DNA of 64,000 nt, taken from the NCBI GenBank assembly GCA_020723385.1, contig DYIZ01000013.1:1733-65732 (forward strand). Reading direction: 5' to 3'. Each line of letters opens with the position of its first letter. The stretch's first letter is position 1. A model generated the notes under the pieces. It did no database searches. It was not told where the DNA came from and was given only the letters and a program-made list of their open reading frames with translations. Below are positions 35,533-57,378 of this stretch, piece after piece. The stretch is from Candidatus Aquidulcis sp. Its GTDB lineage: Bacteria; Chloroflexota; Anaerolineae; Anaerolineales; UBA4823. Position numbers and translations under genes: made by a program.

Positions 35533-36633
35533 ATGAATGCTCAATCCGCCCCAATTTTGGGTTTCGTCACAGAATATTTCGGCCGGCAGCGTTCGGTCAA
35601 GCCCGCCCAGTTCGCAGATAACGAGCTGATCAAGCCGATCACGCCGTTGAAAACTTACTTCCTTTTCGGCGCTTATCTCAACCTTCCCCCAAATGTTGCT
35701 GCGGTTGTCACTTACACCGATGGGCAGCAAACCATGTTCCGCACGGGCGGCTTGCTTACTTTGCCGCCCGGCTCATATGGGTTGCAATATGTGGATATAC
35801 GCCAGCAGCGGACTTACCTGCCCGACGTGCGCGCCGACACGCTCGACGCCTGGCAGGTAACCCTGGCGCTCGACATCACCTGGCAGGTGCGCACACCCTT
35901 GCAGATCGTCACAACGAACCGGCCTTACCAGGCGCTCATCAACGAATGCCGCGCCGCGGCGATCAATTTTATTCAATCGAGGAACCACGATAAATTGATC
36001 CCGGCGCGGGAAGGCACGCCTCTTGAAGATACCGAAATCTCCGAAGCTATCCTGAACCAGTTGCGGGCCAGCCCAACCCTCAATGGTTTCCATATTTACG
36101 GCATCAAAGTCCTCGAACGGCGCGGCGACCCGCTTCGGCTGGATAAAATTCGCGAATCCAATGTTGAGCAAACCAAATACCAGCAAGCCCTGCTCGTGGA
36201 AAACGAAAAACTCAAGCTCGAGCTACAAAAGCTCCAGCAGCAAGTTTCTCTCACCCAGCAGCGCGGTGAGGTGGCTATGCAGGAGGCGCGCGCCAGCCAG
36301 CAGGTCAGCAAAGCCCAGGCCGAATCGCAAGCCGATGTGTCGGACATCTTGCTGCGCATGAGACGGCAGGCCATCGAGTTGGAAAACCTCAGCCGGGAGC
36401 AGAAATTCGAGCAGGAGAAATTCCTCAAAGGCCTCGATACGATCAGCCAGTTCGCAAGCATGTTCACCCAGCTTCAGATGACGCCCGGCCTGCAGCGCAG
36501 CATGGATGATAATTCGCTGGACGCGATGACCCGTCTGATGAAAGCCATGCTGCAAGCCCTTCCGGCAAACGAAAGCGGCGCGCCAACGACCAATGTGCTC
36601 CCGGCCGTCAACTTGCGCAGCCTGGATAAATAG
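35533..36633 (+). CDS. SPFH/band-7-like protein with a C-terminal coiled coil and no transmembrane anchor
   Basis: YVDIR...ADTLDAWQVTLALDITWQV pattern followed by Gln/Glu-rich helices; AAGGAGG RBS. Confidence 0.55.
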   Translation: MNAQSAPILGFVTEYFGRQRSVKPAQFADNELIKPITPLKTYFLFGAYLNLPPNVAAVVTYTDGQQTMFRTGGLLTLPPGSYGLQYVDIRQQRTYLPDVRADTLDAWQVTLALDITWQVRTPLQIVTTNRPYQALINECRAAAINFIQSRNHDKLIPAREGTPLEDTEISEAILNQLRASPTLNGFHIYGIKVLERRGDPLRLDKIRESNVEQTKYQQALLVENEKLKLELQKLQQQVSLTQQRGEVAMQEARASQQVSKAQAESQADVSDILLRMRRQAIELENLSREQKFEQEKFLKGLDTISQFASMFTQLQMTPGLQRSMDDNSLDAMTRLMKAMLQALPANESGAPTTNVLPAVNLRSLDK

Positions 36634-36660
36634 GCCTATTTCATTTGTCTGACAGGCGTG

Positions 36661-36716
36661 CTGAGCGCAGTCGAAGCATGCCGCTGATGATCGCTGCACC
36701 CTTCGACTGCGCTCAG
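36661..36716. repeat. CTGAGCGCAGTCGAAG / CTTCGACTGCGCTCAG inverted pair
   Basis: Perfect 16-bp inverted repeat; second pair at 44562-44628. Confidence 0.8.
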
Positions 36717-36759: not shown

Positions 36760-37956
36760 TTGGACATTGGTTGGCTGGAAATAACCCCGGGACGGCAAGA
36801 GAATTGGGAAACACTCGAACCAGCCTTCGGCCAGCCAGCAGGCGATGGCTGGCATGCCCAATTTGCTTCACTCATTCGTGTCAGGCCCATGGATCAACGC
36901 GCCAAACGCAAGTGGGGCTTCAACCTCGGCGCGCTGCTCGACGAGGCCATCGAACGCCAGCGGCTGTTCATCCAATCCCGCCATTTTTCCGGCGTCCCCG
37001 AAATGGGCGACGAGCCGCCCGAGCGGCGCACCATCGCCCTGCGCGCTATCCATCATCCCCAGGCCGAACGCCTGCAGCTTGTGCTGGTCGCCAAAGTCTG
37101 GGGGGCGACCCTCGAGGCAGTCCGCCAGGCCGCCACAGATCATTGGCACGAGATCCATTCGACCTTCCCCACCGATTATGAGCTGATTCCCGCCCGCTCG
37201 CTGGAATCTTTCTACAATCTGGCCGGCTGGCGCATCCTGCAAGACGCCGCCCAGCCCAACACCATCGCTGAAATCCAACGCTACGAAAACGTGCTCAATA
37301 CCGGCAGCGACAAAATGTACCTGCTCGGAGCGTGGAAATATACCAACACCTCCAACGAGCAAACCTGGCGCACCCTGCAAGGCGCAGACCGGCGCATTCT
37401 GTACAATGTCACCCTGCGCCCCACTGTGCTGGACGAGTTGGAACAAGCCGCCCTGCTGGTTATCGCCCAATATGCCGAGAAAATTGCCAGCCAGGCCACG
37501 CTGCCCAACGTCAAACCCTATGCGGAGTTCGCTGCTAAAAACTACGCTTACCTGCTCCAACAATTGCGTAAACCTTTCATTGTCCAGGCGCAGGTTGTTG
37601 CACCGGAAGGTTTGCCGGAATATCTGCCGCGCAACATCGGTTACGCCATGACTTACCGCAACGATCGCGAGCCGACCACACCGGGATTTCAGATCACTCG
37701 CCCGGCAAACGCTGCTGAAGTCGCCGCCTGGCGGGCCAATCTCATCTGGCTCGAACCCGAAGTTGCTACCGGGCCAGTAATTGACCCGCGTTTTGTCCGG
37801 GTGCGGAAGATGACCGATGCTTACGAGGCGCGCGGCCTGCTCTGCCTGCCCTTCCCGCCCGACAGCGAACTGCCGGACGTGCATTTCGCTGAAAAAATCG
37901 AAGAGCCGGAAGTTCGTAGTGACGGCATTAGCCGTCCGGAAACGGGCGGCGACTAA
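36760..37956 (+). CDS. Hypothetical protein
   Basis: 398-aa ORF, TTG start after AAGGAGG, co-oriented within the operon; no catalytic motif recognised. Confidence 0.75.
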   Translation: MDIGWLEITPGRQENWETLEPAFGQPAGDGWHAQFASLIRVRPMDQRAKRKWGFNLGALLDEAIERQRLFIQSRHFSGVPEMGDEPPERRTIALRAIHHPQAERLQLVLVAKVWGATLEAVRQAATDHWHEIHSTFPTDYELIPARSLESFYNLAGWRILQDAAQPNTIAEIQRYENVLNTGSDKMYLLGAWKYTNTSNEQTWRTLQGADRRILYNVTLRPTVLDELEQAALLVIAQYAEKIASQATLPNVKPYAEFAAKNYAYLLQQLRKPFIVQAQVVAPEGLPEYLPRNIGYAMTYRNDREPTTPGFQITRPANAAEVAAWRANLIWLEPEVATGPVIDPRFVRVRKMTDAYEARGLLCLPFPPDSELPDVHFAEKIEEPEVRSDGISRPETGGD

Positions 37957-37999: not shown

Positions 38000-38003
38000 C
38001 AGC

Positions 38004-40223
38004 ATGACCACTTCCAATTCCGTCACCTTCACCGTCGTCAAACATCTGCCTTTCGGGCTGCTGGTTCAGCTCGAAGATGGGCGCAGCGGCGTCATCCGGG
38101 TACGCGAGACCTCGTGGAGCGCCGAGGAGCGTCAAAACTGGCAGCAGATGTTCCCGGCGGGGTGGCAATCACGCGCCGTGATCCTGAAAATGGGCGACGA
38201 CGGACACCTGGAATTGAGCCTGCGATTGGCGCGCAACGATCCCTGGGAGCAGGTTCCGGGCCGCTACCGCAAGGGGCAGGTGATCCAGGGAGTTGTCACC
38301 GGCCTGACGAACTACGGTGTGTTCGTCCAGCTTACCGAGGGCGTCACTGGCTTGCTGCACGCCTCGCAGCTCCCCGATTGGGTCCAGCCCAACCCATTGG
38401 AATTATTCTGGCCCGGCGATCACGTGCGGGTGAAGATCGAACAAATAGACCTGGCGCACCGCCGTATCAGCCTGGGGCTGGCGACATCTGCCTTGCCAAT
38501 AGAACCCCAACCGGTTCAGCCGCGCCCCACCCGGCCTGCCACCACCCCACTCGCCGGCAGGTCATCCCCCAGAATCACGCTCGACCAATTCCTGCGATCC
38601 GGATTCCCCCGGCAGTTCATCCTCATCGTCGAGGATGATCCCATTCAATCCACGGCGGTTGCCACCTGGTTGAGCAAAGTTGGCCAGCGGGTGGTTGTGG
38701 CGGCCAATGGGGCTGAAGCGCTTGCCTGGCTCGACCGGGAATGCCCCGACATCGCCCTGGTAGACCTTGGGCTGCCCGATACCCTGGGGAGCGACCTGGC
38801 CCGCCAGATCCGCCAGCGCTGGCCGCAAGTGAAATGCACCCTCGCCACCGACTGGGCGCGCGCCGACGAGCACACCCGCGATCTGGAAACGTTGAGCGCG
38901 GCGGGTGTGGGGCTGCTGCTCAAGCCGCTGCTGCCCGATGATCTGCTGGATCTATTGCAAAATCGAACGCTTCCGGCTTCGGTATTAACCGGCGAGCCGA
39001 TTCAGCCTGCCCTGCGTCAGTTCGATCTGCCCTCGCCGGGACGACAGGCTATGCAAGCTGCGCTGCTCGCCCTGCTCGACCGCTGCCGGTCGCAAACCAG
39101 CTTCGAGGCAGCCTTTCTCTTCGCGGTGGACACTGCCCAGCGAACGGTCGAGATCGTGCAGCGCAGCGGAGGCGGCGCGATCAATAAGGATGCTTTGCCG
39201 TCCGTCATCTACAGCCCGGTGCGTGACGCTGCCGAAGACGGGGAAGTGGTGGCAGTGGAGCGGCTGACCGAGCAAGATGCCCGCCGGTTTCGCTACCTGC
39301 TGGATTTCTACGGGCTGGCGGCGTGCCTGGGCGTGCCGGTTCCGGCGGGCGCGCCGGTGAAGCACGCCCTGATGCTGCTCGACAGCCGGACGCGGGCGAT
39401 CCCCTCCGAAGCGGTTGCTTTCACTCAATCGGCGGCGCTTGCCCTGGGGGCGCTGCTCGACCGGCAGGCATTCCAAGAGCAGGCTATTCTCGTTCAGCGC
39501 ACTGCCCTGCTCGGACACCTGACCCGCGGGCTGGTGCATGAGATCAACCATCAACTCAACCCGTTGATCTTCTCTGCCGACAGCCTGGAAAAATCACTGG
39601 AGGACATCTCTGCGCGGGCCGCTTCGCCCGAGAGCGTGAGGCAAAAGGCGCAGGAAGCTTCCGGCTACCTGGCCGATGTGCAAAAAGCGGCGCTCTCGCT
39701 GACCAGCACGACGCGGCAGTTCGGGCGTATCCTCACCCGCAACCGTCCGCAGCTTCTGCGGGTGGATGAGCTGATCCTCGAAACGGCTTATTTGCTGAAG
39801 GATGCCAGCCGCCAGGCGAAGGTGAGCATCGAGCTGGCAGCGACCAACGCGCTGGTGTTGGTGCGCAGTGAAGGTTCGGCCATCGAGCAGGTTTTACTCA
39901 ACGTGCTGCTCAACGCCGTTCAGCAAATCGGCGAATGCCGCCCCACCAGCGGCGGGTGGGTACAGGTGCGTATCGAAACCTTTACCCCACCGTCGGGGCA
40001 GATCATGTGCCGGATATCGGTCGAAGATAATGGGCCGGGGATTCACCTGCGCCTATGGGAGCAAATCTTCGAGATTGGTTATTCCACCCGCAAGGAAGGC
40101 AGCGGGATGGGGTTATATATCTCCCGCAGCCTGATGGAAGCTGCAGGGGGCAAAATCTATGTGGCGGACAGCCACATTTTGAGCGGGACGACTTTTGCGC
40201 TCGAGCTGCCCTGCCAGGTATGA
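38004..40223 (+). CDS. Hybrid histidine kinase with two N-terminal S1 RNA-binding domains (S1-S1-REC-GAF-HisKA-HATPase)
   Basis: S1: FGLLVQL..GRSGVI, DPWE linker, GVVTGLTNYGVFVQL.EGVTGLLHASQL...RRISLGL; REC: VEDD, VDLGLPD, LLKP; kinase: HEINHQL, NVLLNAVQ, DNGPGI, GSGMGL. Confidence 0.88.
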   Translation: MTTSNSVTFTVVKHLPFGLLVQLEDGRSGVIRVRETSWSAEERQNWQQMFPAGWQSRAVILKMGDDGHLELSLRLARNDPWEQVPGRYRKGQVIQGVVTGLTNYGVFVQLTEGVTGLLHASQLPDWVQPNPLELFWPGDHVRVKIEQIDLAHRRISLGLATSALPIEPQPVQPRPTRPATTPLAGRSSPRITLDQFLRSGFPRQFILIVEDDPIQSTAVATWLSKVGQRVVVAANGAEALAWLDRECPDIALVDLGLPDTLGSDLARQIRQRWPQVKCTLATDWARADEHTRDLETLSAAGVGLLLKPLLPDDLLDLLQNRTLPASVLTGEPIQPALRQFDLPSPGRQAMQAALLALLDRCRSQTSFEAAFLFAVDTAQRTVEIVQRSGGGAINKDALPSVIYSPVRDAAEDGEVVAVERLTEQDARRFRYLLDFYGLAACLGVPVPAGAPVKHALMLLDSRTRAIPSEAVAFTQSAALALGALLDRQAFQEQAILVQRTALLGHLTRGLVHEINHQLNPLIFSADSLEKSLEDISARAASPESVRQKAQEASGYLADVQKAALSLTSTTRQFGRILTRNRPQLLRVDELILETAYLLKDASRQAKVSIELAATNALVLVRSEGSAIEQVLLNVLLNAVQQIGECRPTSGGWVQVRIETFTPPSGQIMCRISVEDNGPGIHLRLWEQIFEIGYSTRKEGSGMGLYISRSLMEAAGGKIYVADSHILSGTTFALELPCQV

Positions 40224-40232: not shown

Positions 40233-43200
40233 ATGTGCCGTGTTTTGATCCTCGATGACGATCCTTTCTTTTGCAAAACGATAGCCGAGCCGCTCAACCG
40301 GGTTGACGAAGGGCGCAGTTACCACACGGTGAGCGCCACGCGCGTCGAAGATGCGCTGCGGGAAGTCCGGCTGGCGGTTGAAAGCAGTAAGCCGTTCGAT
40401 GTTTTGTTGATTGACCTGCGCTTGAGTGAAAACCAGGATGGCATCGAGGTGATGCAAACCCTGCTGCACCTCAGCCCATCCTCGGACGCCATTATCCTGA
40501 CCGGTCTCGATGACAGCCCTGACGCCGGGCTGAGAGCCTACCAGGCCGGGGCTTACCGGTATATCTACAAACCGGTGCATCCCAAAGAGCTGGTGCTGCT
40601 GCTCCAATCGCTCAGGAACTGGCGCAAAGTGCAGCATGAGCGCAGTTGGCTGCAAGTATTCAACGAAGTGGCTGAGCAGGCGCTGAACTGCCTCAGCTTT
40701 CAAGACGCGGCCCACATCTTTGCGCGCGGAGCGCTTCGGCTGGGTTTCGAGCGGGCGCGCCTGTTCGAATTTACCTCCGATTACCCGGATATTTTGGTGG
40801 GCGTTTGCCAGGAGGGATGTGAAACGCTGGACGGGTTCGAAGGCGCTTTTTTTGCAATTGCTGAGGCCGCCTACTTCGAGCGGGCAATCCACACCCGGGA
40901 AATACAGTTCTTCAAGGGCCGTGAGTTGGGGCCTGCCTTGATGGAGCGCACCTTCGGAGAGTCTTTCTCCCCTCCGGTTGGCGAATGGGCCGTATTGCCT
41001 TTGTGGATCAGTGAAAAATTTGTCGGCATCATGGTTGTGGATAACGCCTCGCGCGATCATCGCATCCACGAGGAGGATCGCAAGCAGTTGCGCCTCTACG
41101 CCCGGCTGGTTGCCGGGAACCTGGAGCGCATCCGGCTATATGAACAGGAACGCACCAGCCGCCAAAGAATCGAATACATCGCCGAAGAAGCGCGCCGGAC
41201 AGCCCAGCTCGAAAGCGAAGATGCCCATCGGTTGGACCTTTTGCAACGCGCCAGCGTGGAGCTGCTCAACATCGCCAGCCAGGATGAGGAGAAGTTTTGG
41301 CTCACCCTGCTGACTCTGGCAACAGCGAACTACGCGCTGGGTTTCAACCGGGCATGGATCTTCCTGGCGGAAGCCGGCAACACCCGTTTGCAAGGCAAAT
41401 TGGGCGTTGGCCACCTGGATTCCCAGCGCGCACAAACCGACTGGGAAAAAGACCTCGCCAGTCAGATGACATTCGAGCGGTTCCTGCAAGCGCTGCACTC
41501 GAATACAGTACAACACACGCCGCTCGAAGGCATGACCCGTGATTTTGCGTTGGAGATCGGCCTGTTTGGCGGTCTGTTCAAAGAGGTGCTAGCGACAGGT
41601 CAGCGAGCAGTCCTGTCGTCAGAGGAAGCCCTGACTCTCCTGCCGGGGCCGTTCAACCGCAAATTCGCCCCGGGCGACTGCGCCGTGCTGCCCTTCCGGG
41701 CCGGTCGGATGGTCATCGGGGTCATGGTGGTAGATAACAAACACGATGGCAAGCCCATCCTGCCCACCACCCTCGACCGGCTTGAGACTTTTATCAACAT
41801 TGCCGGGCTGGTCTGGCAAAATCTGATCCAGCGCAAGCAGCGTGAGGCCCTGCTGGATGCATCGAACGTTATCCTGGGCAAAGCCAGCCAGCAGCCCCTG
41901 GGCGACTCACTGCGCCGTATCTGCGACTCGGCGCGCACCGTCACCGGGGCCGAATGGGCGATCATTTACCCATTGAAACCCGGCGGCGGGCCGTATACCT
42001 ACGATGTGCCCAACGTTGGATACTCCGGCGATTTCAACCCGGGTCAAATCAAGGATAAGCCCCGCCAGAAGGGCGTCGCGGCCCACATCCTGCGCAGCGG
42101 GACTCTGGTCGTGGGGGATGTCGGGCGCACAGAGAACTCGCCCAATGTCGAGAAACTGTCGCAGCACAAATTCATCCAGCGCAACGGCATCCACGCCCTG
42201 ATCGGAACACCCATCCGCAGCGTCGAGCGGGAGGAAATGCTCGGAATCCTGTTCCTCAATTACCGCACAGCGCAGACGTTCACGCAGCAAGAGATCATGC
42301 AAGCCGAGTCTTTCGCCAACCTGGCGGCGCTGGCAATCCTCAATGCCCGCCACGCCGAAAAGGTCAGCCGCAGCCTGAGAGAGGCGCTCTCCCGGGGCGA
42401 GACCAGCCAACGCGAGCTGGAGCTGATCCAGCGGGTGCTGGCTGACTCGTTGGCGAATTCCAGCGAGCCAGGTGTCATTCAAACTTTGCTGACCAACCTC
42501 CGCCGGGCGCTCGACCACCCCGACATCAACCCGGCGCTGGTTCTGCATCACTGGGAAGCCGAGACTCTGGAAGACGAACCCCGCGAAATCTTATTGCAAT
42601 ACACCCCCGGCCCCGAGGGCGGGGTCATCAAAACGCGCATGGGGGTCAGTGAAGACAAAACAATCCTGGCGATGCTGCGCAGCAAACATGCGGCAGTCAA
42701 AACAATCGGGCGCAGGCTGTATGCTCCCATTGCGTTGGGCCAGACGGTGATCGGCGTGCTATCTGCCGAGATGGACAACGCAGCCCAGGCCAAAGATTAC
42801 CAGCCAGTTTTGGAGCGCTTCGCCTTTGCGGCTGCAATGGCGCTGGACAACGCCCGGCAGCAAACTAATCTGCACCATGTTCTGGACGCCGCCCAGGCGG
42901 TGACCGCGCCAATCAACCTGAATCAGACCCTGACGGCCATCTTGCAAAGTGTGCGCAATGTTTCGCCCGATCTTTCGACGCTGACGCTGTGGTACCGCGA
43001 CCCGGAGACTGATTGCATCAAAATGGGGGCGTCTTTCGGCGTGCGCAGTCTGGCCGATCTGACCCAGTTCGATCCGGGACCGGAGAGCATCGTCTCGAAG
43101 GTGATGCGCTCGAAGCGCCCAATTTGGGCTTCTCCCCTGAAAAAGCATCACTTGCTGTGGGGGCGTTTCGTTCGGGATGAGAAAATCGTCTCATCGGCGG

Positions 43201-46303: not shown

Positions 46304-46320
46304 CAGGAAAGGTGATGATT

Positions 46321-47670: not shown

Positions 47671-47682
47671 TCCCGACCGGTC

Positions 47683-49339: not shown

Positions 49340-49379
49340 GCATTTTCTCCACGCGAAGTAAGAATTCAGCCTGCAGACC

Positions 49380-50957
49380 CTAATGTTTCAGCCTCTCCGC
49401 CACCACGGCCGCGGTAATCAGGGCGTGGTCGCGGTGGGCTGGCTCCATGTCCATCACGGTGACGACTTTGATGGCATTGAACAGGACTCCGATGAGATAA
49501 GCCCGCGCGGCATCGGGGTCGTTTTCGGGCAAGGCCAGCTCGCGGATTTTTTGGATGGCCCGGTGGGCTTTGTCAATCTCCGGGATGGCTGCCAGCTCCG
49601 GTGGAAGCTCGACCCTGCGCAGGTCAGGTGCATTGTAGGAAAGACAATCCCACTCGTAGAGCCGCTTCCAGTCGCTGCTCTGCACCATCATGAAACGGGT
49701 GAAGGTTTCAAAGGAAACGTAATCTTGCAGCAACGGCCCCCGGTCGGCGACGGCGAAATCAATCAGCCAGGTTTCGTTCCGCTCGTCTACCAGCACGTTG
49801 TAGCCGTAGAGGTCGCCGTGAATGATGGCGATTTGGGAGTCGGCCCGCAAATCGGCTGTGAGAGCGAATTTCATCGGATCGGGCAGAAGGAACTCTCCTC
49901 CCAGCCAGAGTCCCTGGCTGTCGCGGTGAAATGGGTGCCGCCCCGCCATCATGCGCTCCAACGAGCTTTGCATCACCTCGGATTTGAGGCGCACCAGCCG
50001 CATGTAGGTTTCACGCAGGTCGAGTTTGGAATGGGATGTAATAGCGTTACGCCGCCAGGGGAAGCAGGTTTCCTGGAATAGATTATCGAGGGCCGACAAA
50101 ACCTGGGCGAGGCCGGCCTCCCGATAGAAGATGGCGAAATCGCGGGTGGCGCCCAAACCCGCGAAGGTGTACAAAATCCCCGAGAGGCTGCGGGTGCGGG
50201 CGAAATGAAGCGTCAGCGGCAGGCGATGCCCGCCCACAATGCCCTGAACCAGCTCCCGGTATTTATGGCGTTCTTTCTCGACCAGGGCGTGCTCCCCGAT
50301 CTTGGCGACACGCGCCTCACCGCGTCCCCGCCCGCGGTACCAGGGGGTCACAGCAAAGACAGCCGCCCCGCTGTAGCCACGTTTCATTGGGCGAACCTCG
50401 ATCCGCTCGCATTCGTAAAATAGCTTTTGTAGAATTTCGCAGGTTTCTTCAGCCACCTGCCCGGCATCGGGTTTGGCAATGTCAATAAAGCGGATTTTAT
50501 TAGCCACATGCGGGATGAATTTTTCGGTATCTTCGATAATGAGTGCATCGTTGATCCGCAGAGCATTGTCGAATGCCCCTTTCACCTGCTCCGGCAACCG
50601 CATGATTTCTGATTTTTGGAGAAAACTGTAAGCCGGAGCAAAACCATTGGAATCCGGCTGGAGCGCTTCCTGCACCATCCCGACAGTGGCATACCCGGTG
50701 AGGATAATCACAGCGACGGTGGGGTCTATGCCATTGATATCGTGCATCAGGGTGATGCCATCCTGATTGTCCTCATCGGTGTCGTCCAGGCGCACATCCA
50801 GCACGGCCACGTGAAAACGCTCGGCCTCGAGCAGCTGCAAGGCTTCAAAACGGCTGGAAGCGGTGCGAACGAGATAGCCTCTGTCAGAAAGCAAACCCGA
50901 CAGCGTTGTACGCATGTCGGGCAGATCGTCAACGAGGAGAACGCGGCCTTTACACAT
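49380..50957 (-). CDS. Receiver domain fused to an APH/kinase-like (TCAD9-like) phosphotransferase, second copy
   Basis: REC: LVDD, LDVRL; kinase: GYSGAAV, RVAKIG, HGDLYGYN, WLIDFA, LQDYVSFE. Confidence 0.82.
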   Translation of the reverse strand: MCKGRVLLVDDLPDMRTTLSGLLSDRGYLVRTASSRFEALQLLEAERFHVAVLDVRLDDTDEDNQDGITLMHDINGIDPTVAVIILTGYATVGMVQEALQPDSNGFAPAYSFLQKSEIMRLPEQVKGAFDNALRINDALIIEDTEKFIPHVANKIRFIDIAKPDAGQVAEETCEILQKLFYECERIEVRPMKRGYSGAAVFAVTPWYRGRGRGEARVAKIGEHALVEKERHKYRELVQGIVGGHRLPLTLHFARTRSLSGILYTFAGLGATRDFAIFYREAGLAQVLSALDNLFQETCFPWRRNAITSHSKLDLRETYMRLVRLKSEVMQSSLERMMAGRHPFHRDSQGLWLGGEFLLPDPMKFALTADLRADSQIAIIHGDLYGYNVLVDERNETWLIDFAVADRGPLLQDYVSFETFTRFMMVQSSDWKRLYEWDCLSYNAPDLRRVELPPELAAIPEIDKAHRAIQKIRELALPENDPDAARAYLIGVLFNAIKVVTVMDMEPAHRDHALITAAVVAERLKH

Positions 50958-50977
50958 TGCCCCTCACAAGGTATTGG

Positions 50978-51376
50978 TTATGGTAACACACGTTGAATTG
51001 TGGTCAACAATTGTACGATATCGGACTTGGGCACAAAATCCGAAGCCAGCACAAGGCCAGATGCATCCGGGCCGCGGGTGTACTGCACATCTTCGGTTGT
51101 GCCATAGCCAGTGACGATGATGATTTTGATCGAGGGCCAACGGATGCGGATTTTCCGAGCCAGCAACAAGCCATCTTTGTTATCTTCGTCGGTATCATCC
51201 AGGCGCATGTCCACCAGCGCCAGATCGAAGCGACCTGTTTCAAGGATCTGAATCGCTTGATCTGAGGATTCCGCCACCTCGACTTCGAATCCTTTGCCCG
51301 CCAGCAGGCCGCGCAGGGTAGCGCGCCAATCTGGAAGATCGTCAACCACCAACACCTTGCGCGGTTCTTTTGTCAT
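50978..51376 (-). CDS. Single-domain response regulator
   Basis: VVDD, VDMRL, VTGYG and FVPK; GAGGAG RBS. Confidence 0.9.
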   Translation of the reverse strand: MTKEPRKVLVVDDLPDWRATLRGLLAGKGFEVEVAESSDQAIQILETGRFDLALVDMRLDDTDEDNKDGLLLARKIRIRWPSIKIIIVTGYGTTEDVQYTRGPDASGLVLASDFVPKSDIVQLLTTIQRVLP

Positions 51377-51402
51377 GGGATTTCTCCTCGTGGGGATTCC
51401 GA

Positions 51403-51756
51403 TCACGGCTTCGATGAGAGCGGCAGCAGCTCACGGACGCGATTGAGCAAATCCTCTGACCCAAAGGATTTGGGGAAATAACGCACTGCACCCAGGCGGT
51501 AGGCGTTGAGCGCTTCCTGCGTGTTGGGCCTGACGGTGGTCACGATCACGCGCTTATCGGCATATTTCTCGCCGATTTCCTTGATGATATCCAAATGGCC
51601 CGAGCTGGCAATCACCAGGTCGAATTGGTCGTCTTCGAGCTGTTTCAAAGCTTCTTCGATGGTGGAGGCGACAACGATCTCGAATCGGCTCAAATCGTTC
51701 TTGACAAAATCAATCCAGCGTGGCTCGTCATCAATGATCAGGATTCGTGTTTTCAT
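51403..51756 (-). CDS. Atypical (pseudo) receiver protein
   Basis: IIDDE and YFPK are present, but FDLVIASSG has no Asp at the phosphoacceptor position. Confidence 0.8.
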   Translation of the reverse strand: MKTRILIIDDEPRWIDFVKNDLSRFEIVVASTIEEALKQLEDDQFDLVIASSGHLDIIKEIGEKYADKRVIVTTVRPNTQEALNAYRLGAVRYFPKSFGSEDLLNRVRELLPLSSKP

Positions 51757-54700
51757 GAGATGCCTCCTCCCCGGATGGGGATGGTCACCAGCATGACCGT
51801 ACCCGTCATGCCGGTGGTCTCAATTGTAATATCACCGCCCAGGCTCTGCAAGATCAAGCGGCTCAACCACAATCCCAGGCCGGAACCCATCCCTTGCTCT
51901 TTTGAGGAGACCGGCTTTACAAACAACCGCTGCCGGATCGAAGGAGGAATGCCAGGACCGGTATCCTGAACGTGGATCCGAATGAGGTTATCAACCAATT
52001 CGCTGGTTACTGTCAATGTACCGCCGCCAGCTTTCATCGCGCGGTAGGCGTTATCCACCAGGTTATTGATAACTTCTGAAATTTGACCAATCGGCGCACG
52101 GATAACCGTAATTCTTTCATCGAGTTTCTTGACTGTCGTCACAAATGGATGTGTGGTGTCATCCTTCCAGGCTTTCTGAACCTGGCTGACAATTTCGTCT
52201 AGCACCGCATTGATATCTACATCTCCTATTTCGGCGTTTTGCAGCGGTTCTTGAATCCGTGTGATCAATTGGGATGTGTACCGGACATTGCGCTCGACGA
52301 TATCGAGGCACTCCTGAATGGTGGCGTCAGAAGTGTCCACGCGTTCACGCAGCCGGTAGAGGTTGGGAGGAATGATATTGAGGGTGTTATTGATGCGGTG
52401 CTGCAGGGCAGCGGTAGCTGTGCCGAGGACGCCCAACTGTTTATTGGCAATGATCTCTTGCTGAAGCTGCTTTGTCTCGTTATAGAGGCGAACATTCTCC
52501 AAAGCGATGACCGCAGCTTTGGCAATATCTTCCAAAATCTCGAGGTCTTGCTGGCGGAAGCGGTTTTCGATGGTGGGATGATCAATGCCAATGACACCCA
52601 CAACCTGACCACCCTTAAGCATTGGAACGGCCATCCAGGAGGCCTTGATATCCTCTCGCTCAGTGCTATGCCCAGGCTCAGCAAACCAATCTTCGATTTC
52701 TTTACGGGTAGAGAAAAAGATCGGTTTTTTGGTCTCGATGATATATTCTGTACGGCCCTTCCCCGAGACTCGTGAAGGCAAATATTTGGGTTGATCGTTA
52801 GCGTAAACGAGAGCAAAACGAACCGTATCGGAAAGCTCATCGTACAGCGCAATATACATATTGCTGGTGTCCATCAATTTGGTGGCCTGATCCCGTATCA
52901 GGCTCAACAGTTCTGCCTCCGATAACTGAATATTCGAATTGACCGCGCGATTGAAATCTATCAGGGCCTCTAAGCGTTGATTGACATGGGTCATGTCGCG
53001 GACCATAAAAGCATTGTCCAGGGCGACGGCCGCCTGGTTAGCCATGGCTTGCAAAATTTCCTGATCATCGCCGCTGAACACATAATCTTGAGTCGGGTGG
53101 TATGCGGCTACCACGCCCAAAACTTTCTCCCCCAACATCATCGGAACGCCTAACCAGGATGCTGAAATGGCGCCTGTATATTCTTTATGACCTTTCTTAT
53201 CGTACCACGCTCTCCCCTCCGCCTGCGTCGAATGTAAAATTGGCTCCTTTGTACGAATGATCTCTTCCGTTCTTCCTTGACCAGCTTTCCGGGGTTGATA
53301 GGCTTTTGTGCTGACAATATCTGCTTGTCTGCCGTTGAGGTAAACCAGACCAAAACGCACATAATCGGTTGCCTCGTCATACAAGGCGATATACATATTG
53401 CTCGTGTCCATCAGGTCACTGGCATGTTGATGAATCAAATCGAGCACCTGCTCTTCCGTCAAGCGCAAGCCTTGCGTCACCTCACTGCTGAATTTAACCA
53501 GCGCCTCTAGTTTTTGATTCCTGGCGTAAAACAGGCGTGAATTATCCAGCGCAATTGCAGCCTGGTTGGCGAGCGCTTGCAGGATGATTTTGTCATCCTC
53601 ACTGTAAACATAATCATTGGTTGGATGATAAGTCGCAACCACACCGACAACTTTATCTGCGACCAGCATCGGAACACCTAGCCACGATGCCAAAGGCTGG
53701 CCGATATATTCGCCGTGACCAGGTTGAGCATACCACGCCATACCTTCAGCTTGAGTAGCATGGAAAAGGGACCGTTTGGTCCGAATAATTTCCTCGGTCT
53801 TCCCGCTACCCGCCTTGCGGGGCTGCCAGCCTTTCTCTTGAGCTATTTCTATTTTCCTCCCGTCAACAAAGGCCAGCCCGAAACGAACGGTATCCGTTGT
53901 CTCGTCGTACAGGGCAATATACATATTTCTGGTATCCATCAACTGGCTGGCTTTATTGTGAATCAACTCGAGAATTTCATGCTCTCTGAGGCGAATGCCT
54001 TGGGTCAGCTCCAAACCAACTTCATTGACCGCCCGCGTAACTTCGTACAACCGGGCATTGCGCAGTGCAATGGCCGCCTGGTTAGCCAAAATCATCGCCA
54101 ATTCCTGGGCGTCATCATTGAAAGCTTCTTTCTGCGCGCTTTCAGCATTGAGCACCCCCACCAGCTCATTGCCGACCAGCAATGGCACATCCAGCTCAGC
54201 CAGGGTCGATTCGACATCCTTCCGGTAACGATCATCCACTGTCACATCATTGGCGCATATCAATTCACGCTTTGCGGCAGCCCCCCCCATCAATCCCTCT
54301 CCAACCTTGATGCTGGCGCCTTTCGCCTTGCCAATCGCATACTGGAATTCCAGCTCATTGGTAGTTTTATTCAGCAATGCAATCGAGCCAACCTCACACC
54401 CCAGCATTTCCAGCGATTGCGCCAGGATAGTCTGTAATAAAACATCCTTATCGAGAATACTGGCAATGTTTCGCGATATTTTTTGCAGCGTCTGCCGCTG
54501 CTCGAAGAGGCGCTTATTATGGATTGCAACAGCAGCCTGGCTGGCAAAAAGCTCGATCAACTCTCGTTGGGATGACAGGAAAGTCTGCGGCGTGCGGAAG
54601 TTGGCGAATAAGATGCCGACCAATTCGGTTCCAACGATCAGCGGGATAGCGGATGAGGATCTTACCTTCTCGCGAACAACGAACCGCTCTTCGGGACGAT

Positions 54701-56021
54701 CTACTCGATCCACTGTGAAATCTTTGGTGAGATCGCCTGGCCCCTGGGAATTGAGAATGTAAGCCGGTTTCCGGCTCTTCACAATTGTCCAAACGACATC
54801 GTCGGCATAAACTTTATCTTTCGCTACAGTTTGAACAAATTTTTCACCGGCTTCGATGGGCGGCAATACAAAATCATTTCGTTGTTGAATAAACTCATAA
54901 AAAACGACTAGGTCTGCACCCAGCACATTTTTGGCGGTTTCGACAATATCCTTGAGAATGTCCCGCACCGTGATGGGCGTAGCCGGCTTGGTGAGCAGCG
55001 TCGAGCCGACTTCGTGCAGCCGCTTGAGCGCCTCGGCCCGGCGGGTGATCTGCTGGTACAGGCGGGCGTTGTCAATCGCCACCGCGGCCTGGTTGGCGAA
55101 CACCCGGATGGTGTCTTTTTCCTCCTCGCTGAACTGGTGCGGGGTGCGGAAATTGACATACAGGATTCCCAAGACACGCTCGGTCACCTTGAGGGAAATC
55201 CCCATGAATGCTTTGATATCCTCTCGCTTGATAAATGGGCTTTCCAACATCGCAGGGTCTTCAGCCTGGATGTCACCACGCACCACTTCTAGCTCCCGTT
55301 TGACATAAACGGCCATCCCACCCTCACGGCGCGGTTTTTCGTTGAGATGCAGCGATGTATTCAACCCAAAAGCAGCCACGCTCTTTTGATCGTAAAATTC
55401 CTCGTTCTCGGGATCGTAAGGATACACCACCGCACAGTCAGCGCCGGTCACATCGCAAGCGCCCTTGACCACTTGTTCCAGCACCTGCATCGGGGAACCA
55501 GAAGCCAACTGCTCGAACACCTCCCCCGTCTCGATCAACCGCCGCAGCGTCTTGCGCCGCTTTTCCGCCTCGAGTGTCAAACCCACCTGGGCGGAATAAC
55601 TGCTCAACAATTGCCGCTCCAGCTCCGTAAACTCTTTGACCACAAACGAATAAATGCATACGACACCAATCACCGTATCGCCCACTTTGATCGGGAGAAT
55701 GAGCGCAGAACGCCAGCCCTGTTCCTTGGCAAAATCCTTGTATTTCCACAGCGGGTCGGTCAGAATATCATGAACAATTACCATTTTGCCCGTCTGAAAC
55801 GCCTGTCCGGTTACAGTTGGCGTGTCAAAACCCAGGAAGGCCGTTTCAATGTATGACTTTGGCAAACCGATCGCAGCCTTAATGCGAAGTGTGTGCGCGG
55901 TTTCATCCGGGACCCACACGCTGATGGGCAAATTGAGCACCCGATTGATCGATTCGACCATCGTTTGGAAAATATCTATCGGCTCGGTGGTTTTTCCGTT
56001 CTGCAATTGTTCGAGACCCAT
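51753..56021 (-). CDS. Soluble histidine kinase with about 7 GAF domains
   Basis: Repeated ANQAA.A.DN GAF ends; QHRINN, NLVDNAY, DTGPGI and GSGLGL; ATG after GGAGG, directly after the upstream stop codon. Confidence 0.9.
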   Translation of the reverse strand: MGLEQLQNGKTTEPIDIFQTMVESINRVLNLPISVWVPDETAHTLRIKAAIGLPKSYIETAFLGFDTPTVTGQAFQTGKMVIVHDILTDPLWKYKDFAKEQGWRSALILPIKVGDTVIGVVCIYSFVVKEFTELERQLLSSYSAQVGLTLEAEKRRKTLRRLIETGEVFEQLASGSPMQVLEQVVKGACDVTGADCAVVYPYDPENEEFYDQKSVAAFGLNTSLHLNEKPRREGGMAVYVKRELEVVRGDIQAEDPAMLESPFIKREDIKAFMGISLKVTERVLGILYVNFRTPHQFSEEEKDTIRVFANQAAVAIDNARLYQQITRRAEALKRLHEVGSTLLTKPATPITVRDILKDIVETAKNVLGADLVVFYEFIQQRNDFVLPPIEAGEKFVQTVAKDKVYADDVVWTIVKSRKPAYILNSQGPGDLTKDFTVDRVDRPEERFVVREKVRSSSAIPLIVGTELVGILFANFRTPQTFLSSQRELIELFASQAAVAIHNKRLFEQRQTLQKISRNIASILDKDVLLQTILAQSLEMLGCEVGSIALLNKTTNELEFQYAIGKAKGASIKVGEGLMGGAAAKRELICANDVTVDDRYRKDVESTLAELDVPLLVGNELVGVLNAESAQKEAFNDDAQELAMILANQAAIALRNARLYEVTRAVNEVGLELTQGIRLREHEILELIHNKASQLMDTRNMYIALYDETTDTVRFGLAFVDGRKIEIAQEKGWQPRKAGSGKTEEIIRTKRSLFHATQAEGMAWYAQPGHGEYIGQPLASWLGVPMLVADKVVGVVATYHPTNDYVYSEDDKIILQALANQAAIALDNSRLFYARNQKLEALVKFSSEVTQGLRLTEEQVLDLIHQHASDLMDTSNMYIALYDEATDYVRFGLVYLNGRQADIVSTKAYQPRKAGQGRTEEIIRTKEPILHSTQAEGRAWYDKKGHKEYTGAISASWLGVPMMLGEKVLGVVAAYHPTQDYVFSGDDQEILQAMANQAAVALDNAFMVRDMTHVNQRLEALIDFNRAVNSNIQLSEAELLSLIRDQATKLMDTSNMYIALYDELSDTVRFALVYANDQPKYLPSRVSGKGRTEYIIETKKPIFFSTRKEIEDWFAEPGHSTEREDIKASWMAVPMLKGGQVVGVIGIDHPTIENRFRQQDLEILEDIAKAAVIALENVRLYNETKQLQQEIIANKQLGVLGTATAALQHRINNTLNIIPPNLYRLRERVDTSDATIQECLDIVERNVRYTSQLITRIQEPLQNAEIGDVDINAVLDEIVSQVQKAWKDDTTHPFVTTVKKLDERITVIRAPIGQISEVINNLVDNAYRAMKAGGGTLTVTSELVDNLIRIHVQDTGPGIPPSIRQRLFVKPVSSKEQGMGSGLGLWLSRLILQSLGGDITIETTGMTGTVMLVTIPIRGGGIS

Positions 56022-56022
56022 T

Positions 56023-57378
56023 TCAATTCCTCCCGGCGCTGTGAACTGCCCGCCAGTGAAAATCATCCACCAATGATTGGTGGTAATCGTTCTCCCGAAA
56101 AGCCAGCCCTCGCCGGTCCAGCTCCACTCGGGTGATCAAATGGGGCATTCCCCATTCCTTTTCCAGATAAGCAATCTGACAACCGGTCAGCGTTTGCCCC
56201 TGGTTCTTATGCAATAATCGCTGGAAACACCGCTGGCCGCGCGCCAACGTTTTCGAAAATCGCTCGGTCTCGGCTGTGAAGTAAGCCAGCAAGCGCGCTT
56301 TCACCCAGGGGTCACAACAAACCGAGGAAACATTTTGCGAGACGCAATCCAACATGACCGGCAAAAAATTGGGAGATTGGATTCCAAGCAAAAGCTGCCG
56401 CGTGATCACCCCGCGGATCAGCATTTTGATGATGCGCTGCCGCCCATCCTTGCCCGGAGGGGGCGCGCCGTCAGCCACCAGGCAGTACAGGCCCTTGAGA
56501 TAGTCCGCTATGACCCGCTCGCTGGCTGCGGCCAGCGCCGCCGGAAGATCGTCTGCCCGGACGAAAGCGCGGATGCTCTCGATAATGGGCTGGTACAGAT
56601 CGGTATCGAAGACGGAGGGCGCGTTTTGCAGGATCATCGCCACCCGCTCGGAGCCGATCACCGTCTCGGTGAAGGGATCGTTCATCGGGAGGAAGCTCCG
56701 CCGGTCGGGGCCAAGCTCCCGGCAGATGAACAGCGAATTGGAGAACTCCACGAACCGCCCGCATTTGCATCCAGGGCGGCAATCCGCCCCACAGGCTCGC
56801 TCCCGCCCCCGGTCGTAGAAAAGCTCCGTGTTGGGGCCGCACTTCCGGGGAGGGGCGCTCCCCTCGATGCCGTTACCCTGGATCCAGTAATTGCTCTCGG
56901 CCCCCAGCCCAACGACCCGCTCTTCGGGTACGCCCACTTCCAGCCAAGCCCGCCGGGCCAGGTCATCCTCGGGCATAGGATTCCCCATCACATCGCCGCC
57001 CTTGAAATACGATACCCAGATGCGTTCCCGGTTTACCCCCAACACCATCGTCGCCAGCCGCCACATCCGGCGGATCGTCTCGGTTTTGCCGTTCGGCCCG
57101 AACTCGAACGCCCCCGGCATCTCGAACAGGCTGAGATGTACATCATCCGACCCAACTTTGTCGAGATCGAAATGGCGAAAACACTCTTGAACCAACACAT
57201 ATTGGTTACCATCCCGGCGAGGCGATTGGGACAAGGAGGTTTCCACCTGCACCAGACCGGCGCTCATCACGAACGACATTGGGATGGATGCATCCAGCAA
57301 CGGGGCGCGGGGCAACTGCTGGTACCCCAGCCCCTCGTAATATTTGACAAAACGCTGGCGGATCACATTCGAATCCAT
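56023..57378 (-). CDS. Truncated, divergent alanyl-tRNA synthetase paralogue (aminoacylation and helical domains only)
   Basis: IRQRFVKYY, QECFRHFDLDKVG, FEMPGAF, NYW, CGPNTELFYDRG, GCKCGRFVE, IGSERV, VIADY and ETERFSKTLARG; ends at about 451 aa with no editing or C-Ala domain. Confidence 0.85.
   Translation of the reverse strand: MDSNVIRQRFVKYYEGLGYQQLPRAPLLDASIPMSFVMSAGLVQVETSLSQSPRRDGNQYVLVQECFRHFDLDKVGSDDVHLSLFEMPGAFEFGPNGKTETIRRMWRLATMVLGVNRERIWVSYFKGGDVMGNPMPEDDLARRAWLEVGVPEERVVGLGAESNYWIQGNGIEGSAPPRKCGPNTELFYDRGRERACGADCRPGCKCGRFVEFSNSLFICRELGPDRRSFLPMNDPFTETVIGSERVAMILQNAPSVFDTDLYQPIIESIRAFVRADDLPAALAAASERVIADYLKGLYCLVADGAPPPGKDGRQRIIKMLIRGVITRQLLLGIQSPNFLPVMLDCVSQNVSSVCCDPWVKARLLAYFTAETERFSKTLARGQRCFQRLLHKNQGQTLTGCQIAYLEKEWGMPHLITRVELDRRGLAFRENDYHQSLVDDFHWRAVHSAGRN

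Follow-up and report, generated by a model that had tools for sequence, protein, structure and literature searches.

GCN2 is an eIF2-alpha kinase that is regulated by a HisRS-like domain, to which uncharged tRNA binds. CBASS, type III CRISPR and Thoeris are second-messenger immune systems that combine a sensor enzyme, a ligand-binding domain and effectors. In the NTP-dependent 'ternary' and related conflict systems surveyed by Kaur et al., as described in the available parts of the papers, effectors of the CHAT/caspase, trypsin, TIR, TCAD9, EAD8/EAD11 and NACHT/STAND types vary between orthologous loci of filamentous or multicellular hosts, and receiver domains are recorded only without kinases (PMC7159879; PMC8195603). 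AlaRS is regarded, in the accessible part of one source, as among the synthetases least prone to paralogy (PMC5388404). The excerpted account of AcmF describes an AlaRS-like, Ala-tRNA-dependent aminoacyl transferase of ascamycin biosynthesis (PMC12945691).

The window, by which we mean the whole stretch of 64,000 nucleotides analysed, carries a plus-strand module (35.5-47.7 kb) and a minus-strand module (47.7-57.4 kb) that lie tail to tail in this genome only. We read the region, with a probability of about 0.6, as two cytoplasmic phosphorelay modules of the conflict or programmed-death type, independent of one another and each conserved in its own right. An earlier note on this DNA had listed 12 open reading frames, and an ORF check and Pfam searches recovered all of them at the positions and with the domain architectures it gave. 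Homologous loci in other genomes establish that both operons are conserved multi-gene modules, as the note had supposed, and reject a chance neighbourhood. Its statement that the proteins have no obvious transmembrane segment also stands, as none of the 12 has a 19-residue stretch resembling a membrane helix by the Kyte-Doolittle measure; the highest mean, 1.86, lies within a GAF strand. To judge from their motifs, the signalling parts of both modules look intact. An H-box His and a HATPase_c domain occur in each of the three kinases (motif check; Pfam), the phospho-acceptor Asp is present in six of the seven receivers (the exception, REC117, has Ser), and the CHAT dyad and TCAD9 motifs are in place.

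The first gene of the minus module encodes an AlaRS-like paralogue (56023-57390, minus strand) that matches tRNA-synt_2c with E 8e-62, over profile positions 2-422 of 552 only. The ORF comprises 455 aa, and the likely start at 57378 yields a protein of 451 aa. On the same strand follow a soluble histidine kinase with GAF_2 matches in seven stretches, a HATPase_c domain and an H-box His (51753-56066), a pseudo-receiver (51403-51756; Response_reg E 1e-11) and a single-domain receiver that has its Asp (50978-51406; Response_reg E 2e-17). Alignment places Ser at the position of the phospho-acceptor Asp in the 51403-51756 product, which is therefore a pseudo-receiver, as had been claimed. The single-domain receiver carries a DDTDEDNxDG insert after the Asp (alignment), and its orthologues in L017, L019, L021 and L025 are 48-51% identical. 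Similar acidic inserts after the phospho-Asp occur in receivers of both modules. The remaining two genes of the minus operon encode receiver-fused effectors. REC-TCAD9, a receiver joined to an APH-like kinase (49380-50957, minus strand; TCAD9 87.9 bits), contains HGDxxxxN and IDF motifs. REC-CHAT, a receiver joined to a caspase-like protease (47681-49339, minus strand; CHAT E 1e-22), has both residues of its catalytic dyad, His and Cys, and the CHAT protein gives a weak NCBIfam match to the cell-division protein HetF. The REC-CHAT ORF is frameshifted near 47903-47905, and the sequence matching the C-terminus of its homologues changes frame there and reaches its stop codon at 47836-47838. An independently built assembly has a break at this same site, at 47905. 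Given the frameshift in the assembled sequence, the window's copy may be partly disabled.

The minus module belongs to a widespread family, mostly of Anaerolineae-type Chloroflexota. The core comprises an AlaRS catalytic-fragment paralogue, a histidine kinase with multiple GAF domains, mostly also a pseudo-receiver, and a receiver; one to three receiver-fused effectors form the variable tail. Of 66 non-duplicate loci, 64 have a GAF histidine kinase gene on the same strand immediately after the AlaRS-like gene (60 of 65 before duplicates were removed), and in the other two a few small ORFs come between them. AlaRS thus has here a large and well-conserved paralogue family whose sole constant partner is a GAF-array histidine kinase. 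At 12 loci a GAF-only array protein is encoded directly upstream of the AlaRS-like gene, and L017, L019, L021 and L025 share the collinear order AlaRS-like, GAF kinase, REC, REC, REC-effector, REC-CHAT. The first receiver after the kinase is without the Asp in 17 of 32 scored loci and keeps it in 15, the latter count being partly a product of the way ORFs were chosen, with the pseudo-receiver at times hidden by an antisense ORF. The pseudo-receiver is usual, yet not universal, in the family.

Effectors were counted in the 37 loci where the kinase is complete and two or more ORFs follow it, with examples confirmed by Pfam and the other labels assigned by BLAST to those examples. CHAT (13 loci) and Schlafen/AlbA_2 (10) lead the census, followed by TIR and an unknown type, uA (5 each), NDT-like (4), TCAD9 (3), trypsin and EAD11 (2 each) and caspase, HD-CE, NACHT and Metallophos (1 each); five loci have no labelled effector. 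REC-TCAD9 effectors occur in L025, L084 and L121, and the place of REC-TCAD9 in the window is the variable slot, filled in other loci by Schlafen, TIR or other domains. Such swapping of effectors across orthologous loci is typical of bacterial conflict and cell-death systems. The outputs are thereby confirmed as belonging to the conflict and cell-death repertoire, as proposed in the note, with the receiver-fused effector exchanged among CHAT, Schlafen, TIR, TCAD9, trypsin and caspase. The module is spread sporadically and has a foreign composition: the AlaRS-like gene is found in two of 301 genomes of the order and in none of the 40 nearest relatives, and G+C is 0.50-0.55 in the module and 0.58-0.64 in its surroundings.

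Members of the AlaRS-like family are proteins of about 445 aa, 55-66% identical to that of the window, and have the aminoacylation and tRNA-recognition domains only. The window's protein has neither tRNA_SAD nor DHHA1 in Pfam, parts of the canonical alaS architecture; its score with the alaS equivalog TIGR00344 is 201 bits, where the NCBIfam cut-off is 457, and it is only 30-35% identical to the AlaRS of relatives. Residues of the ATP site are nevertheless those of canonical alaS, with R72, E215 and R249 aligned to the class II residues Arg69 (motif 2), Glu209 and Arg242 (motif 3; reference numbering is that of the E. coli AlaRS chain). Between 98 and 100% of 60 members retain the motif-2 Arg, FEM, NxW, the equivalents of E209, N212 and R242, and the motif-3 Gly. 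Trp211, Val214, Asp235 and Gly237 of the E. coli enzyme, which we take to be residues of the alanine pocket, are replaced in the window by Ser, Leu, Glu and Val, while Asn212 is kept. These changes are fixed in the family (W211S in 95%, V214L in 100%, D235E and G237V in 98% each), as are a four-residue deletion after R69 (100% of members) and four invariant Cys. The combination of a retained ATP site with family-fixed pocket changes suggests that the protein is likely to be an enzyme or a ligand binder, and disfavours a decayed copy.

All ten other carrier genomes that were tested also encode an AlaRS of 882-950 aa, together with an AlaX-like protein of about 400-450 aa. The short protein is consequently a true paralogue, as the earlier note had it. 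No canonical AlaRS was found in the window's own genome, where contig C117 encodes a 411-aa editing/C-Ala protein covering the missing C-terminal half of AlaRS. Since this assembly is 95.6% complete, the canonical alaS may simply be missing from it; because none was recovered, the short protein could conceivably have a housekeeping role in this one genome. Charging of tRNA-Ala is known for an N-terminal AlaRS fragment of comparable length, and one could take the 455-aa protein for the organism's working AlaRS, split or miniature, whose adjacency to the kinase is incidental. The lack of another AlaRS catalytic domain in the genome and the C117 protein speak for this. We nonetheless consider it very improbable in view of the full-length AlaRS and AlaX-like protein in every other carrier genome, the family-wide replacement of alanine-pocket residues, the low identity to relatives' AlaRS, the score far under the equivalog cut-off, the kinase linkage in nearly all loci, and an assembly incomplete enough to have missed the canonical gene. 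No more credible is a function in a natural-product pathway, as an AcmF-like transferase dependent on aminoacyl-tRNA or as a toxin-resistant copy of AlaRS. The truncated two-domain architecture is indeed common to both proteins, and D232E in AcmF parallels E242 of the window's protein, aligned to E. coli D235, so far as AcmF is described in the excerpted text (PMC12945691). According to the same excerpts, however, AcmF reportedly lacks most ATP-binding residues and carries N219Q, whereas the window's family keeps both the ATP-site residues and the Asn212 equivalent (PMC12945691). The neighbourhoods examined contain no biosynthetic genes, and the constant partners are signalling proteins.

In the literature searched we found no description of the minus-operon layout or its family; the nearest entries are AcmF and a line in the table of a caspase review, and the family is apparently undescribed so far. 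Its effector set corresponds to that of the Kaur systems, including the caspase, trypsin, TIR and EAD effectors that vary in the vWA-MoxR system, and none of the 12 proteins has a vWA, MoxR, VMAP or iSTAND core by Pfam. In the minus module, unlike those systems, a histidine kinase is a fixed part of the core and every effector is receiver-fused. We found no mention of an AlaRS paralogue in the available text of Kaur et al. 2020 and 2021 (PMC7159879; PMC8195603). Classical branched phosphorelays share with the minus module the H-box kinases with HATPase_c domains, several Asp-bearing receivers and a single-domain receiver that could serve as a sink or shuttle. The minus module differs from them in having death-type enzymes in place of DNA-binding outputs, a usually fixed pseudo-receiver, a synthetase paralogue as the putative input, and parts that are all cytoplasmic. 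The logic of second-messenger immunity would apply only if the AlaRS-like enzyme made a small nucleotide-derived signal; the minus module has no cyclase and no SAVED or CARF parts, its presumed readers are GAF arrays, and phosphotransfer would take the place of direct ligand binding by the effector.

From the observed gene content, conservation, linkage, effector swapping and residue retention and loss we infer a signal, a direction of flow, a phenotype and an input from the AlaRS-like protein to the kinase. With its ATP site and tRNA-recognition domain kept and its amino-acid pocket rebuilt, the AlaRS-like protein would act as the input element, reading a translation-linked cue such as the state of tRNA-Ala or of aminoacyl-tRNA. 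The cue could reach the GAF array as a small adenylate-derived product to which the array binds, or the AlaRS-like protein could contact the array directly. The GAF kinase would then autophosphorylate and phosphorylate the receiver domains, with the pseudo-receiver modulating phosphate flow, and phosphorylated receivers would release the fused effectors, with arrested growth or death as the outcome. That TIR, CHAT, Schlafen and trypsin effectors are fused to receivers suggests that two-component phosphotransfer can trigger death-type effectors. Should tRNA or translation state prove to be the input, the family would provide a testable model that couples translation damage to abortive infection or programmed death, and a defined ligand-hunting problem for the GAF arrays; as a compact operon of five to seven soluble proteins it is suited to reconstitution.

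GCN2 likewise couples a synthetase paralogue to a protein kinase, and in both cases a phosphorylation signal could report the status of translation. In GCN2 the synthetase domain is fused and catalytically inactive and the output is translation initiation, whereas in the minus module separate polypeptides are encoded, the class II synthetase relative derives from AlaRS and conserves its ATP-site residues, the kinase partner is of the histidine type and bears a GAF array, and the family's outputs are proteases, TIR and nuclease-like effectors. We suggest tentatively, as a possibility somewhat short of probable, that the module is a bacterial counterpart of the GCN2 principle serving immunity or altruistic death, in which phosphotransfer-gated executioners are controlled by an AlaRS-derived sensor or alarmone-maker. 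The enzyme would monitor the integrity of tRNA-Ala or aminoacyl-tRNA, for instance during phage attack on tRNAs or translation, or else would make an aminoacyl- or adenylate-derived alarmone that the GAF arrays would detect; receiver-gated CHAT, TIR, Schlafen, trypsin or APH-like kinase would then be switched on by the histidine kinase through phosphotransfer. This would constitute a new class of immune signalling, with a synthetase-paralogue sensor and a two-component link to killing. The domains of the minus module also fit starvation signalling or development, and a relay that senses amino-acid, alanine or tRNA-charging status and tunes physiology (proteolysis, phosphorylation, filament differentiation), with no part in defence or death, has to be weighed. 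Metabolic sensing is a typical task of GAF domains and of domains derived from AlaRS, the CHAT family includes HetF, and no mobile-element genes were found flanking the module. PADLOC-DB 2.0, applied to the proteins other than the two large GAF kinases, gave, besides a weak SAVED_CHAT match (E 0.0015), only receiver-region matches to PDC-M60B and SduA, so that nothing in them ties either module directly to phage defence. We regard such a relay as unlikely, given the sporadic distribution, the deviating composition and the exchange of effectors for TIR, Schlafen/AlbA_2, trypsin, caspase, HD-CE, NACHT and EAD adaptors; a single housekeeping output is hard to square with swapping of the conflict type, as depicted in the accessible text of Kaur et al. 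2020 (PMC7159879).

The plus module is a second system, analogous to the minus module. Its first gene (35533-36633, plus strand) had been called SPFH-like; Band_7 is indeed matched, weakly, at 23.6 bits, which is exactly the cut-off value, and the product has no hydrophobic stretch. The next gene on this strand, unk398 (36760-37956), is conserved and has no Pfam or NCBIfam match; SPFH adjoins it in seven of 12 unk398 loci (L053-L064), and of the five without SPFH two are on short contigs. The structural model of unk398 (pLDDT 82, pTM 0.85; the other four models reach 47-57) aligns with residues 28-422 of 7o42_A over 269 residues (VIA-align Z 16.5, rmsd 3.9), and Foldseek gives E 4e-5 with a TM of only 0.3-0.4. 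The predicted fold thus resembles the N-terminal domain of VirB4/TrwK. A hybrid kinase follows (38004-40223, plus strand) with S1-like, S1, REC, GAF and histidine kinase regions. Of the two S1 domains claimed for it, one is clear (E 4e-19) and the first, in residues 1-85, is a sub-threshold match only (E 0.011-0.058); REC and HATPase_c are matched, and GAF falls below the Pfam cut-off. The second hybrid kinase (40233-44543, plus strand) has REC, a GAF array in four stretches, HisKA with its H-box His, and HATPase_c by Pfam. REC-TCAD9, again an APH-like kinase (44666-46303, plus strand; TCAD9 100 bits, REC below cut-off), has its catalytic motifs, and its orthologues are 39-42% identical. The last gene (46144-47670, plus strand) encodes a STAND-type P-loop NTPase (AAA_16, below cut-off) with a C-terminal OmpR-type winged helix (Trans_reg_C), Walker A GPASMGKT and Walker B VMDEFD; translation probably starts at Met57 (46312) and not at 46144. 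The whole plus operon recurs in four other genomes (L057-L060), where the S1 kinase has full-length orthologues of 41-42% identity. A second TCAD9 lies beside a STAND gene on contig C174.

The earlier note had taken the convergent operons for one paired system and had named their independent occurrence as what would refute it; neighbourhood analysis shows that each is conserved elsewhere without the other. An integrated surveillance circuit, with kinases and receivers communicating between the operons, would account for the part types common to both (GAF kinase, REC-TCAD9) and for the similar acidic inserts of their receivers. Among the 31 loci whose upstream sequence is long enough, 12 have an SPFH gene immediately before the AlaRS-like gene, and STAND-wHTH homologues lie upstream of it in L025, L112 and L114, so these themes do recur together; unk398 is present in three of 11 AlaRS-like genomes (G000, which is the window's own, G161, the same as G046, and G047), compared with 21 of 301 in the order sample. 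Yet comparison of the relatives' SPFH and u334 proteins with SPFH and unk398 of the window shows no detectable relationship (BLASTP E 1.0; hhalign probability 0.1%), and neither of the latter adjoins an AlaRS-like gene in any of 16 genome and 80 metagenome loci. The plus-operon marker unk398 is unmatched in eight of ten AlaRS-like genomes and on another contig in the other two, while all four genomes with a complete plus operon have canonical AlaRS only and no AlaRS-like gene. The matches to the REC-GAF-array kinase of the plus module in AlaRS-like loci overlie the GAF kinase. With convergent pairing seen at no other locus and G+C differing between the modules, we judge a single circuit to be quite improbable, and keep to two independent modules.

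Between the operons, at 47683-47730 on the plus strand, lies a hairpin followed by TTTTGTTATTG. Its RNA folding energy is -39.3 kcal/mol (z -6.3), a stability equalled by none of 200 shuffled sequences, and the stop of the homologous REC-CHAT reading at 47836-47838 places it outside that gene, in the intergenic region. The hairpin described in the note is therefore real; its T-tract is on the plus strand only, and by its sequence it is the probable intrinsic terminator of the plus module.

The island formed by the two convergent operons extends from 35.5 to 57.4 kb, as the earlier note on this DNA had stated, and is flanked by a GH123-like gene and an intein-bearing dnaE. The twelve protein architectures that the note described agree almost exactly with our ORF listing and Pfam scans. 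On the plus strand, a Band_7/SPFH protein that matches Pfam at the cut-off (35533-36633) is followed by a protein without a Pfam family, termed unk398 (36760-37956), an S1-REC-GAF-HATPase_c hybrid kinase (38004-40223), a second hybrid kinase composed of REC, a GAF array, HisKA and HATPase_c (40233-44543), a REC-TCAD9/APH protein (44666-46303), and a STAND-wHTH protein recognized as AAA_16 with Trans_reg_C (46144-47670), whose gene most likely starts at 46312. The first of these kinases had been read as carrying two S1 domains; one is recovered by Pfam, and the N-terminal 'S1' match is sub-threshold. On the minus strand, Pfam identifies the N-terminal two domains of alanyl-tRNA synthetase (AlaRS; 56023-57390), a kinase with seven GAF domains and HATPase_c (51753-56066), a receiver that by alignment lacks the phospho-Asp (REC117, 51403-51756), a further receiver (REC142, 50978-51406), a REC-TCAD9 protein (TCAD9b, 49380-50957) and a REC-CHAT protein (47681-49339). 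None of the 12 proteins has a membrane-like stretch, again as reported previously. The dnaE gene (DNA polymerase III alpha, 57492-63038, plus strand) is divergent from the AlaRS-like gene and is split by an intein that contains a LAGLIDADG homing-endonuclease domain.

The residues expected of signalling proteins are in place. Every kinase carries the H-box His, and in an alignment of the seven receivers the acceptor position is Ser in REC117 alone. REC142, TCAD9b and REC-CHAT have in common an acidic insert, DDTDEDNxDG. The His/Cys dyad of CHAT, the HGDxxxxN and IDF motifs of TCAD9, and Walker A and B of the STAND protein are all present. PADLOC gave matches at the receiver level only. A search of the whole window against Rfam at gathering thresholds gave zero matches, and there is therefore no T-box or other known leader in the window.

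The genome assembly to which the window belongs (6.43 Mb, 95.6% complete) contains a single AlaRS catalytic domain, that of the 455-aa window protein, which corresponds to the N-half of the enzyme; a canonical full-length AlaRS was not found in this assembly. As contig C117 of the same genome (34861-36096) encodes a 411-aa SAD+DHHA1 protein (editing/C-Ala; AlaX-L-like), we considered that the two might constitute a split AlaRS. This was discarded as a general explanation, because all ten of the other genomes that carry the AlaRS-like gene have a full-length AlaRS (882-950 aa, 604-725 bits) as well as AlaX-like proteins. The window protein also belongs to a large family of approximately 445-aa proteins that are 55-66% identical, one of which bears the source name 'alanine--tRNA ligase-related protein', whereas the 40 nearest relatives have canonical enzymes only, at most 35% identical to it. 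Given the coexistence with full-length AlaRS in these carriers and the large family, sequence comparison indicates that the AlaRS-like protein is a genuine paralogue, as the earlier note had held, and the missing alaS of the window's genome is probably a gap of the incomplete assembly. Identities of 40-66% within the family versus 30-35% to canonical enzymes, together with shared substitutions, argue for its monophyly. Proteins of approximately 920 aa labelled AlaRS-like are encoded in three homologous loci, L131 (3138-5897), L136 and L140 (9956-12733), where they sit between a GAF-only array protein and the GAF kinase if both flanks are present; that of L131, the one of the three scanned, has two tandem tRNA-synt_2c stretches in Pfam. 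Locus L145 has a tandem pair of AlaRS-like genes.

To examine the active site, 60 family members were aligned with 10 canonical enzymes, using E. coli numbering taken from alignments to 3hxu and 3hxz. Arg69, the FEM motif, the Trp of NxW, Glu209, Asn212, the motif-3 Gly and Arg242 are kept in 98-100% of the 60 members. Other positions carry fixed replacements, Trp211Ser (95%), Val214Leu (100%), Asp235Glu (98%) and Gly237Val (98%), and all members have a four-residue deletion after Arg69. The Asn of the P-G-N motif in the tRNA-recognition domain is Lys in 97%. Such a pattern is that expected of a selected protein whose nucleotide site has been kept and whose amino-acid pocket has been redesigned, not of a decaying copy. 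Within an insertion that only the paralogue family has, four Cys residues are invariant (C-x3-C-x3-C-x-C; positions 200-210 in the 455-aa ORF, window approximately 56761-56793), and these might form a metal or redox site. A partial parallel is AcmF, a truncated AlaRS-like transferase for which Ala-tRNA is the alanine donor; AcmF reportedly has the same Asp-to-Glu change but, unlike the window family, has lost ATP-site residues (PMC12945691).

The minus module recurs in 16 loci from genomes (Anaerolineae/Chloroflexota MAGs and one Desulfobacterales) and 80 from metagenomes, the latter being the best 80 of 100 relatives; removal of duplicates left 80 loci in total. Of the 66 non-duplicate loci in which an ORF follows the AlaRS-like gene, 64 have a same-strand GAF/HK gene in that position (60/65 before duplicate removal), and in the two exceptions the kinase comes after one to four small ORFs. 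The kinases have 4 to about 12 GAF domains and range from 933 to 2064 aa. The small receiver after the kinase lacks the Asp, with N, S, G or A instead, in 17 of 32 loci scored, a figure that is too low, since some pseudo-receivers were masked by antisense ORFs. The receiver that follows retains its Asp in 13 of 15 cases, and the effectors come after it. Directly upstream of the AlaRS-like gene, 12 loci encode a GAF-only array protein.

The effectors themselves are exchanged from locus to locus. Among the 37 loci in which the kinase is complete and two or more ORFs lie downstream, we counted CHAT (13), Schlafen (10), TIR (5), the unknown type uA (5), NDT-like (4), TCAD9 (3), the unknown type uB (3), trypsin, EAD11 and ParA (2 each), and caspase, HD-CE, NACHT and Metallophos (1 each); five of the 37 have no labelled effector. 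Pfam scans of representatives gave the architectures REC-Schlafen/AlbA_2, REC-TIR, REC-NDT-like-TIR, REC-NDT-like-EAD8-trypsin and NDT-like-CHAT, as well as caspase C14, HD-CE-REC, NACHT, EAD11 proteins, ParA-REC and a Metallophos protein that has a BLAST match to an EAD11 reference. L025 and L084 show the same pairing of REC-TCAD9 with REC-CHAT as the window. This vocabulary and its variability are those described for conflict systems of multicellular bacteria, although in these accounts receivers are reported only without histidine kinases, in contrast to the minus module (Kaur et al., 2020, PMC7159879; Kaur et al., 2021, PMC8195603).

The plus module has a distribution of its own. A sample of 301 genomes of the order includes 21 with unk398 homologues (13 at E < 1e-14), and the whole series from SPFH through unk398, the S1 kinase, the REC-GAF kinase and REC-TCAD9 to STAND is collinear in four genomes (L057-L060); reduced loci retain SPFH-unk398 with STAND and TCAD9. 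Judged by this gene order and similarity, the plus module is conserved separately from the minus module. The AlaRS-like family is sporadic, with 2 of the 301 genomes and none of the 40 nearest relatives carrying it, and the G+C content of the minus module (0.50-0.55 across 48000-56000) is 5-10 points below the 0.58-0.64 of the plus module and flanks. Both features fit horizontal acquisition of the minus module, and the G+C gap suggests that this acquisition was separate and recent.

The earlier note had proposed that the two operons form one RNA/tRNA surveillance circuit. The evidence is against a single system: the four genomes in which the plus operon is complete all have canonical AlaRS only, eight of ten genomes with the AlaRS-like gene have no unk398 match and the other two have it on another contig, and the convergent pairing is repeated in none of the loci. 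Some plus-type themes do occur beside the AlaRS-like gene. STAND-wHTH homologues lie upstream of it in L025, L112 and L114, and SPFH genes in 12 of the 31 loci whose upstream sequence is long enough. In its closest relatives, the upstream block comprises a Zn-ribbon protein (u334), two SPFH/Band_7 proteins and a Peptidase_S24-like or other protein (L071 390-5325; also L018, L069, L081, L084 and others), a block absent from the window. We considered whether u334 and these SPFH proteins are the same as those of the window, and rejected this because no relatedness is detectable between u334 and unk398 (hhalign probability 0.1%) or between the window SPFH and a relative's SPFH (BLASTP E 1.0); only the theme is shared. 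We read the modules as sister designs, each with a scaffold, an RNA-related input, one or more GAF kinases and receiver-gated outputs, that abut here by chance. Elsewhere in the window's genome, contig C70 (1556-3668) carries two tandem SPFH genes with approximately 25% identity to the paired SPFH genes found ahead of the AlaRS-like gene in relatives.

The genes of the minus module form a fixed triad or tetrad, with signalling residues intact and death-type outputs swapped; the module's synthetase paralogue, by its residues, keeps the ATP site and has an altered pocket. We infer that the AlaRS-like protein is the input element. Because GAF-only proteins also flank its gene, the constant partner would be the GAF array rather than the kinase core, which favours a model in which the AlaRS-like enzyme makes or modifies a small ligand for the array or docks directly on it. 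A complex prediction for the AlaRS-like protein and residues 1-520 of the kinase scored 0.00 in a run without controls, which weighs neither for nor against such docking. The trigger could be the state of tRNA-Ala or aminoacyl-tRNA, by analogy with AcmF and with GCN2. Autophosphorylation of the kinase would then lead to branched phosphotransfer to the receiver-fused effectors, with the pseudo-receiver presumably modulating the relay.

The literature examined, without the supplementary tables of Kaur et al. (2020, 2021), gave no account of an AlaRS-like/GAF-kinase/receiver-effector operon. It yielded only AcmF and an entry in one table of a caspase review, where 'alaS' is among the domains accompanying cyanobacterial orthocaspases, and this entry is a lead only. 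The parts and general logic are of known kinds, and it is their combination that appears new: a GAF-array histidine kinase that has a synthetase paralogue as its fixed partner and gates conflict-type effectors through receiver domains.

For unk398, the structural model has a pLDDT of 82 (the other four models reach just 47-57). By VIA-align it is similar to the N-terminal domain of VirB4/TrwK, an ATPase of type IV secretion (Z 16.5 over 269 residues, rmsd 3.9; runner-up Z 9.3). Foldseek TM-scores are low, at 0.3-0.4, and the ESM Atlas gave only unnamed clusters and a weak DUF8128 lead (26% of one cluster). The third TCAD9 kinase gene of the window's genome adjoins a divergently transcribed STAND NTPase (contig C174, 7444-10836), and the TCAD9-STAND pairing thus recurs. 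Directly downstream of the complete plus-type operon in L060 lies a defence- or repair-type gene for a DEAD-helicase protein that also has MrfA Zn-binding and HNH domains (14888-17479).

The hairpin at which the operons were said to meet (47683-47730) is real and very stable (-39.3 kcal/mol, z -6.3); because its T-tract is on the plus strand only, it would be the terminator of the plus operon alone. Pattern scans for promoters and terminators gave counts at shuffle level (9 versus 9.2 and 22 versus 22.1), and missed this long hairpin because its loop exceeds the limit of the scan. The hairpin seems to lie within the REC-CHAT ORF only because that ORF has a one-base frameshift near 47903-47905 (window 47836-47955, minus strand): the C-terminus of its homologues, '...DRNDxTWxSPILIHQx', is encoded at 47839-47905 in a different frame, whose stop lies at 47836-47838. 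Independent Logan contigs of the probable source run break at the same place, one record ending at 47905 and the next beginning at 47952 (depth 3-8), and the frameshift may therefore reflect an assembly problem or strain heterogeneity. Besides this probable source run, the sequencing-run search listed just one soil run with a small share, and no RNA data set. Elsewhere in the window, an 894-aa protein with two SBP_bac_1 (solute-binding-protein) stretches (25705-28389, minus strand) adjoins a LacI-type regulator, in what looks like an ordinary sugar-uptake context.
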